A DNA stretch of 64,000 nt, from NCBI RefSeq assembly GCF_048403405.1, contig NZ_CP183129.1; one strand, given 5' to 3'. This document shows, piece after piece, positions 25,401 to 25,850 of this stretch. The DNA comes from Escherichia coli (lineage in GTDB: Bacteria > Pseudomonadota > Gammaproteobacteria > Enterobacterales > Enterobacteriaceae). The notes below the pieces were generated by a model. That model did no database searches and had not been told where the DNA came from. It saw only the letters and a program-made list of their open reading frames with translations. The stretch's first letter is position 1; each line of letters begins with the position of its first letter. The translations under genes were made by a program, and so were the position numbers.

Positions 25401-25632
25401 TCGGGTTCTGGGAAAACTGTCCGCGAACCAGATTGAAGGCGATCTCGTTAAAACAGTGGGCAAAGCTTTCCCCGGGACTCCCGTGCACCGGAGCGGTGGC
25501 CATCAGGGACCATTACCGTCAGGGTTTATGACGATCAGCCGTTTGACCGGCAGATTGTTATTCCGGCGGTGGCATTCAGCGGCGCTAAACATGAGAGAGA
25601 GCATACTGATATTTACTCCTCATGCCGTCTGA
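22456..25632 (+). CDS. tail tip host-specificity protein J, main frame; reading frame broken near 25470 so the last ~18 codons are out of frame
   Basis: [21 protein letters not shown]... is collinear with recalled lambda J for >1000 aa, then the tail ...[22 protein letters not shown] is non-protein-like. Confidence 0.85.
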
Positions 25633-25850
25633 TAGTGCGGAAAAACGGTGCTGAAATTTATAACCGTACCGCGCTGGATAATACGCTGATTTACAGTGGC
25701 GTTATTGATATGCCTGCCGGTCACGGTCACATGACGCTGGAGTTTTCGGTGTCAGCATGGCTGGTAAATGACTGGTATCCCACAGCAAGTATCAGCGATT
25801 TGCTGGTTGTGGTGATGAAGAAAGCCACCGCAGGCATCAGTATCAGCTGA
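25452..25850 (+). pseudogene. C-terminal (receptor-binding) portion of J in a different frame, separated from the main frame by a 1-bp deletion in a C-run
   Basis: Frame 0 reads ...[31 protein letters not shown]..., which aligns to lambda J ...AFPRQRESSVDWPSGTRTVTVTDDHPFDRQIV...; junction at cccc 25470-25473. Confidence 0.75.

Follow-up and report, generated by a model that had tools for sequence, protein, structure and literature searches.

A four-C run splits the tail tip gene J of a Qin-site lambdoid prophage in Escherichia coli: recent loss of function or consensus error

A lambdoid prophage with a lambda-type late region

We analysed a 64,000-nucleotide stretch of Escherichia coli DNA (contig NZ_CP183129.1 of assembly GCF_048403405.1, hereafter the window), in which a lambdoid prophage is inserted within ydfJ. 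We take ydfJ to be the integration site of Qin, following the K-12 annotation, and K-12 Qin splits this gene at the same site as the prophage studied here. The flanks that the two prophages have in common comprise pinQ, ydfK, ynfT, gnsB, cspI, rzpQ, rrrQ, ydfR, the ess holin, cspB, cspF and ydfT (a Q-type antiterminator). K-12 Qin has lost its entire head and tail region. The prophage in the window, in contrast, keeps everything from the terminase through the tail fibres.

Positions 1-3298 match the region of ydfU, ydfT (antiterminator), cspF, cspB and essD in strain 4621, where the prophage includes int and xis farther upstream. In this region the window has a run of seven T at 2777, between ynfU and essD, where strain 4621 has six, and cspF (around 1400-1600 in the window) is frameshifted and partial in the annotation of 4621. 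The prophage continues with the terminase through the tail genes, J, lom and an intact side tail fibre gene (801 aa) with accessory ORFs, so ordered that the series K-I-J-lom-stf is lambda-like; pinQ, ydfK and the 3′ part of ydfJ were placed after the tail fibres by synteny with relatives. The lom gene (25918-26517, plus strand), for an Ail/Lom outer-membrane protein, is an intact ORF whose annotation was carried over from strains Ch1 and EcPNK004. The side-tail-fibre cluster at 26582-30318 consists of intact ORFs of 801, 93 and 346 aa, like those of strain 4621; in Ch1, EcPNK004 and THO-008, which have the 3′ end of J in common with the window, the fibre gene is a truncated ‘N-terminal domain’ pseudogene. 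The fibre gene of the window also contains an imperfect direct repeat of 249 nt (27116-27364 and 27305-27553, 83.5% identical).

The right-hand part of the window belongs with the lineage of strains 4621 and MS 69-1, to which it is 99.7% identical without gaps over 28880-51231 and 100.0% identical over the chromosomal positions 51000-64000. The chromosomal flank is 100% identical in 4621, MS 69-1 and OX030728, and J in those genomes is different and intact. Over 24 kb, the top match among RefSeq complete E. coli genomes has 99.3% identity at 96% coverage. Between eamA and marB lies an island (44371-50660) with genes for a GntR regulator, PTS IIB, IIC and IIA components, a carbohydrate porin and a 6-phospho-beta-glucosidase, which the window shares with Ch1 and 4621 and which UID2309220031 and EcPNK004 lack.

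Gene J is divided between two reading frames

Gene J, which encodes the tip attachment or host specificity protein, begins inside a long ORF at 22411-25632 (plus strand), at an ATG at 22456 that PGAP also uses as the J start in syntenic genomes. Its first 1006 codons (22456-25473, plus strand) are identified by their translation, by Pfam matches and by near-identity to lambda J residues 1-985, and they carry the hub, FNIII/Ig and central-fibre domains recognized by Pfam. Codon 1006 ends at 25473, the final base of a run of four C at 25470-25473 (plus strand); read directly, positions 25460-25479 are gcaaagctttccccgggact. The run is one C shorter than in about 99.5% of homologous sequences, and an alignment to EcPNK004 places the gap at 25469/25470. 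Past the run, the J frame continues for 52 out-of-frame codons (25474-25632, plus strand) that end in IFTPHAV and a stop codon at 25630-25632, giving a predicted product of 1058 aa. The remaining 3′ part of J, now severed, occupies the -1 frame at 25473-25850 (plus strand), as established by translation, Pfam and alignment, and consists of 125 codons and a stop codon at 25848-25850. When one C is added after 25473, the two parts join into a single ORF of 1131 aa with no internal stops, which aligns with lambda J over its full length (PDB 8iyk, residues 1-1131, E=0); across the junction, the repaired C-terminus aligns with the lambda segment AFPRQRESSVDWPSGTRTVTVTDDHPFDRQIV. An earlier note on this DNA had described the four-C run, the two frames, the stop at 25850, the resemblance of the second frame to lambda J and the restoration of a protein of about 1130 aa by a fifth C, and sequence, translation and alignment bear out all of these points.

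The two-frame layout is not a chance pattern of ORFs, since PGAP labels the identical lesion as ‘gpJ, frameshifted’ in Ch1 (NZ_CP127316) and UID2309220031 (NZ_CM142673), and close relatives with five C have an intact gpJ of 3396 nt. Both frameshifted genes are 100% identical to the window over 701 nt, and apart from the missing base the 701 bases around the lesion are identical to five-C alleles. The other late genes are open, so that J is the only broken late gene seen, and its indel is the sole frame-breaking indel in the window relative to close relatives.

Lambda gpJ (PDB 8iyk, 8xcg, 8xcj) has 1132 aa, against 1131 aa in the repaired protein, and the two are colinear, with near-identity over residues 1-985 and the same order both of domains within the protein and of genes around it. 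Their receptor-binding domains (about residues 1001-1131) differ: that of the window matches the PDB protein ‘A8 gpJ’ (E=3e-64) more closely than it does the lambda domain (E about 1e-43). In the repaired protein, Pfam detects FNIII-A_GpJ, Phage-tail_3, Ig_J, Ig_J_second and Phage_Tail_Tip in the lambda order, with E-values from 1e-33 to 1e-43, and assigns residues 1001-1131 to the C-terminal receptor-binding domain Ig_GpJ_C (PF12421, E=7e-37). The frame break after residue 1006 thus falls five residues inside PF12421, and from there on this domain is encoded in the -1 frame relative to the preceding codons of J. The gene therefore has the hub and the FNIII/Ig series of a lambda-type J, and the expected operon position between I and lom/stf, but no PF12421 in frame. 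As judged from the sequence, truncated J would comprise the whole structural part followed by 52 nonsense residues and would lack the receptor-binding domain, nearly all of which is encoded by the stranded 125 codons.

Separate translation of this stranded fragment was considered and rejected. A search of 25300-26000 for a promoter-like site ahead of it found none, and likewise no start signal, or convincing start context, was found for the 125 codons. An intrinsic-terminator-like hairpin with a T run (25869-25893, plus strand) lies directly past the true J stop.

Frequency of the four-C run in public sequences

To count run lengths, we used an 80-mer centred on the C run as a query, which matched 3029 RefSeq complete-genome records of E. 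coli. Exactly four C were found in 16 of them, and about 2700 have the 81-nt span with five C, so that five C account for about 99.5%. The exact six-C allele occurred in none of the 3029 records. In all eight four-C records that were opened, PGAP annotates gpJ as ‘frameshifted’ (in MIN14, as a J fragment truncated by IS3). The earlier note had proposed a comparison with J alleles of related prophages; in the records compared here, close relatives with five C have an intact J, and the four-C records that were opened have a frameshifted one.

Other collections are nearly uniform. IMG/VR contains at least 120 contigs with five C and a single one with four, which comes from an isolate genome; every one of 98 metagenome contigs and of 57 phage records has five C; and the four-C 31-mer has no match among the GTDB representatives. 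The absence of four C from the 98 metagenome contigs fits the RefSeq frequency of 0.5%, the short-read census having too little power. A protein-database search with the out-of-frame tail was uninformative, giving five tiny fragments, truncated J proteins being clustered with full-length ones, and look-ups of the truncated J as an exact protein gave no match. J occurs at a median of two places per genome and is multi-copy in most genomes. All 16 four-C RefSeq records were deposited in 2021 or later, while about 27% of sampled five-C records are older (p of about 0.007, a rough estimate).

The four-C run occurs on several haplotypes

For a comparison of haplotypes we took about 330 nt to either side of the run (about 690 positions). 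Four C are found on at least five haplotypes that differ from one another at 13-78 positions. The first is that of the window, Ch1, UID2309220031 and UID2309220033, and the second is that of E28 and E09; for both, the nearest five-C sequence differs by the C alone. The remaining three are represented by MLI104K2, MIN14 and the IMG/VR contig, one each. Over 13 kb of prophage, UID2309220031 differs from THO-008 at only 2 sites, Ch1 from JNE25-001 at 5 and the window from SJC33 at 34, while more than 370 sites separate UID2309220033 from all the others, and a four-gamete conflict is present. The prophage backgrounds of the carriers thus differ, and for each there is a five-C relative that is nearly identical, so that the four-C state has arisen, or been called, repeatedly. 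With at least five distinct haplotypes, one origin followed by spread through recombination is rejected as the full explanation. We also rejected the idea that the run marks a junction between J allele families with offset compensating indels, because the four-C 31-mer is essentially absent elsewhere and there is consequently no in-frame four-C donor family. On the J 3′ allele of the window the four-C run is enriched, with 3 of 17 RefSeq records as compared with 13 of about 3000 others (p=8e-5).

The J gene of the window is itself mosaic. In its Ig/FNIII region, a patch at 23546-24761 carries about 70 substitutions relative to Ch1, UID2309220031 and EcPNK004, most of them common to SJC33, and looks like a recombination tract. 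From 24762 to about 26294 (about 1.5 kb, which includes the four-C run), the window is identical to Ch1 and UID2309220031, and also to EcPNK004 apart from the gap at the C run. The prophages of Ch1 and UID2309220031 occupy the ydfJ site as well, and the window differs from them in having its own mosaic patch, an intact side-tail-fibre cluster and another chromosomal lineage, that of 4621 and MS 69-1.

The deletion is specific to this run

Two other runs of five C served as controls. One lies in the same gene, 210 nt upstream (25259-25263), and its deletion allele was found, by full-length exact match, in 0 of 3595 records. The other is on the opposite strand in the PTS IIC gene (46957-46961, in the context TTTCCCCCGG), and its deletion allele was found in 0 of 2490 records; this run is correct even in Ch1. 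Compared with the 16 deletions in 3029 records at the focal run, these counts give p=3.6e-6 for the upstream run and p=1.3e-4 for the PTS IIC run. Since the focal run is deleted repeatedly and both comparable runs never are, the deletion is site-specific and not a matter of general homopolymer noise, and generic long-read homopolymer noise is thereby ruled out as a complete explanation. A miscall at a CCGG or CCNGG methylation motif is unlikely, as both motifs are present in the chromosomal control and UID2309220031 has no other discrepancy in 40 kb. Neither simple slippage nor a generic homopolymer error accounts for the contrast between the focal run and the controls, and this contrast is the sole unexplained, and mildly unexpected, point in our analysis.

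A recent loss-of-function allele or a consensus error

The earlier note had set a genuinely severed receptor-binding domain against a homopolymer sequencing error. This proved to be the correct pair of alternatives, and both kinds of four-C run are in evidence among public assemblies. Some four-C cases are probably real, given that they occur in Illumina-backed assemblies of decayed J remnants. MLI104K2, which was polished with Illumina reads using Polypolish (PMC10198576), has a single copy of the locus, a remnant with a four-C run whose K, I and J genes show several lesions; MIN14 is a Unicycler hybrid assembly (PMC8703133) in which the four-C J is truncated by IS3. Conversely, at least one case is probably an artefact of a Nanopore-only assembly. 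This is Ch1, which was sequenced with R10.4.1, basecalled with Guppy hac, assembled with Flye and polished with Medaka, with no short reads (PMC10652846).

For the window itself, we give an even chance to the reading that the lesion is real and represents a very recent loss-of-function allele of J. Compared with independent assemblies over 13300-26560 and 28880-64000 (about 48 kb), the window has no other indel, even though these stretches include 231 homopolymer runs of at least five bases, 73 of them of at least six, among them A7, G6 and T6. The assembly thus looks accurate, and UID2309220031 is equally free of other homopolymer discrepancies. The enrichment of four C on the J 3′ allele of the window fits a real allele that is segregating. 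Furthermore, decay is common in this prophage family, as are tail-gene pseudogenes, and relatives have frameshifts in H, K and I as well as IS insertions; decay in 24A16CRGN010, E28, MLI104K2, Ecol_316 and others includes a frameshifted tape-measure gene, a frameshifted gpI and ISEc10 in lom. Against a real lesion, there is no secondary decay near it and the neighbouring late genes are open, which makes it as young as an error would be.

A consensus error, to which we assign a little less than an even chance, would mean that the DNA has CCCCC and an intact J of 1131 aa, and that the basecalling of long reads, or the polishing, lost one C within a lambdoid-prophage repeat. The allele of the Nanopore-only Ch1 is identical to that of the window, and Ch1 has further run deletions, from five to four G in gpK, together with nearby discrepancies in A runs. 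At the gpK position (21193-21197), the GGGGG of the window and of all other relatives is GGGG in Ch1, whose C40 peptidase (gpK) PGAP annotates as frameshifted; because Ch1 was assembled from Nanopore reads only, the error is probably on the side of Ch1 rather than of the window. E28, similarly, has a frameshifted gpI beside its four-C J. The carriers also include pairs from the same project whose prophages are unrelated, namely UID2309220031 and UID2309220033, more than 370 sites apart, and E28 and E09, which have different prophages. The recent deposition of every four-C record points in the same direction, as does the rarity of four C in short-read and older collections (none among 98 metagenome contigs or 57 phage records, and one in IMG/VR against at least 120 with five C). 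So do the near-identical five-C relative that every carrier has and the multi-copy state of J in most genomes, where short-read polishing is weakest. However, an error of this kind would have to have spared the many longer runs in about 48 kb of the window, and those of the equally clean UID2309220031. A generic error at runs of five C should also strike the upstream run, which lies within the same repeat as the focal run, and the PTS IIC run, where it was never found, and two four-C records have Illumina backing.

The lesion could also be real but imported: a decayed J paralogue, or the prophage of another strain, would have passed it to an otherwise intact prophage by gene conversion or recombination. 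This special case of a real lesion would fit the mosaic structure of J in the window, where the patch gives way to about 1.5 kb without differences from Ch1 and UID2309220031, and the occurrence of the same J-3′/lom module in UID2309220033 despite its more than 370 differences elsewhere. The enrichment of four C on this haplotype and the existence of decayed four-C remnants are also in its favour. But import cannot cover all cases, as four C are found on four other haplotypes that lie 13-78 of about 690 positions apart, and for the window no donor is identifiable. We therefore consider it improbable.

The four-C run as a proposed recoding site

A further suggestion of the earlier note, slippage-controlled expression, is not supported. 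On this reading, recoding or switching of run length would let the four-C allele still produce some full-length J. The run does form part of a heptamer T_TTC_CCC (25467-25473, plus strand), which has the form X_XXY_YYZ and lies in the 0-frame phase, with TTC and CCC as codons of the J frame. A -1 slip on it would restore the exact wild-type sequence AFPRDSR, the frame beyond it is open throughout and shows no decay, and the deletion recurs at one site on at least five haplotypes. However, the heptamer is also present in the five-C allele, where it results from encoding Phe-Pro, and UUUCCCC is a weak shifter. In E. coli reporters, Sharma et al. measured a -1 shift of 0.125% when the site had no stimulator; the value was 0.185% when IS911 stimulators were present and reached only 0.98% even with the strong IS3 pseudoknot, over a background of about 0.05% (PMC4066793, supplementary file 2). 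The 118 nt at 25463-25580 fold with a minimum free energy of -43.1 kcal/mol, which is not significant relative to shuffled sequences (z=-1.36, for pseudoknot-free folds). Nor is the two-frame layout conserved, a single ORF with five C being near-universal in RefSeq (about 99.5%) and in the metagenome, IMG/VR and phage collections. Among the properties of a programmed -1 site, J thus has the in-phase heptamer, but neither a useful efficiency in E. coli nor a conserved arrangement of two frames.

Run-length switching fares no better. Known phase-variable tracts are far longer than four to five bases and would be expected to vary in both directions within populations, whereas the run here has four or five C, with 16 records of four C and none of six. 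Altogether, we regard it as very improbable that the four-C allele is recoded or switched.

The lambdoid G/T tail chaperone genes offer a useful comparison, since there too a slippery site in the 0-frame phase opens a downstream -1 frame. The G/T layout is conserved among relatives and has an efficient site of the A_AAG type, whereas the J layout is rare (at most 0.5% of records) and its site weak. In the window, the G/T junction at 16672-16700 reads CCG GAA AAG TCC TGA, with a candidate site at about 16678-16683, and no GGGAAAG of the lambda type is present in 16000-17200. A -1 slip on A_AAG at this junction would enter the T frame (VLTREMQFVMRL...), so the expected programmed G/T frameshift probably uses the variant site CCG GAA AAG.

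Discussion

If the lesion is real, the most straightforward sequence of events would begin with the loss of one C from a run of five, most simply by replication slippage, at a site that recurrently loses a C in E. coli J. Translation would then shift frame past residue 1006, leaving the hub and fibre complete but replacing the receptor-binding domain with a nonsense tail of 52 aa and stranding the remaining 125 codons. With every other late gene open, the Qin-site prophage could presumably still assemble heads and tails. Its particles, however, would be expected to fail to bind their receptor, so the prophage would be non-infectious and may be heading toward a cryptic remnant like K-12 Qin. 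There is no indication of a programmed or regulated event.

A related lesion occurs in phage lambda itself. The laboratory phage lambda PaPa reportedly has a frameshift in the side tail fibre gene stf, and as in the J gene of the window, a single base there splits the ORF of a tail adhesin in two. The consequences would not be the same: stf is dispensable for plaque formation, which leaves lambda PaPa viable, whereas the receptor-binding domain of J is essential for adsorption.

The contrast with the control runs invites a stronger proposal, that the run of five C where the receptor-binding domain begins is a true deletion hot spot which recurrently shuts off adsorption in E. coli lambdoid prophages, with the four-C form perhaps leaky through slippage of about 0.1-1% on T_TTC_CCC. 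We hold this to be most doubtful. Were both the hot spot and the leakiness true, a lysogen could retain a trickle of infectious particles.

The lesion in J is an ordinary recent inactivating mutation, as part of prophage decay at the Qin site, or a consensus error, and not a new mechanism. The gene is a lambda-type J with a one-base frameshift, the identical lesion being a pseudogene in existing RefSeq annotation. For annotation, the matter concerns at least eight RefSeq genomes in which the lesion is labelled as a frameshifted gpJ, and 16 that have the four-C run. As these cases mix probable real pseudogenes with probable Nanopore artefacts, calls of a J pseudogene at this run should not be relied on without the reads. 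For biology at large the finding has little consequence. For the source strain, however, the lesion decides whether the prophage at ydfJ makes infectious particles, and thus bears on predictions of its viability and host range.
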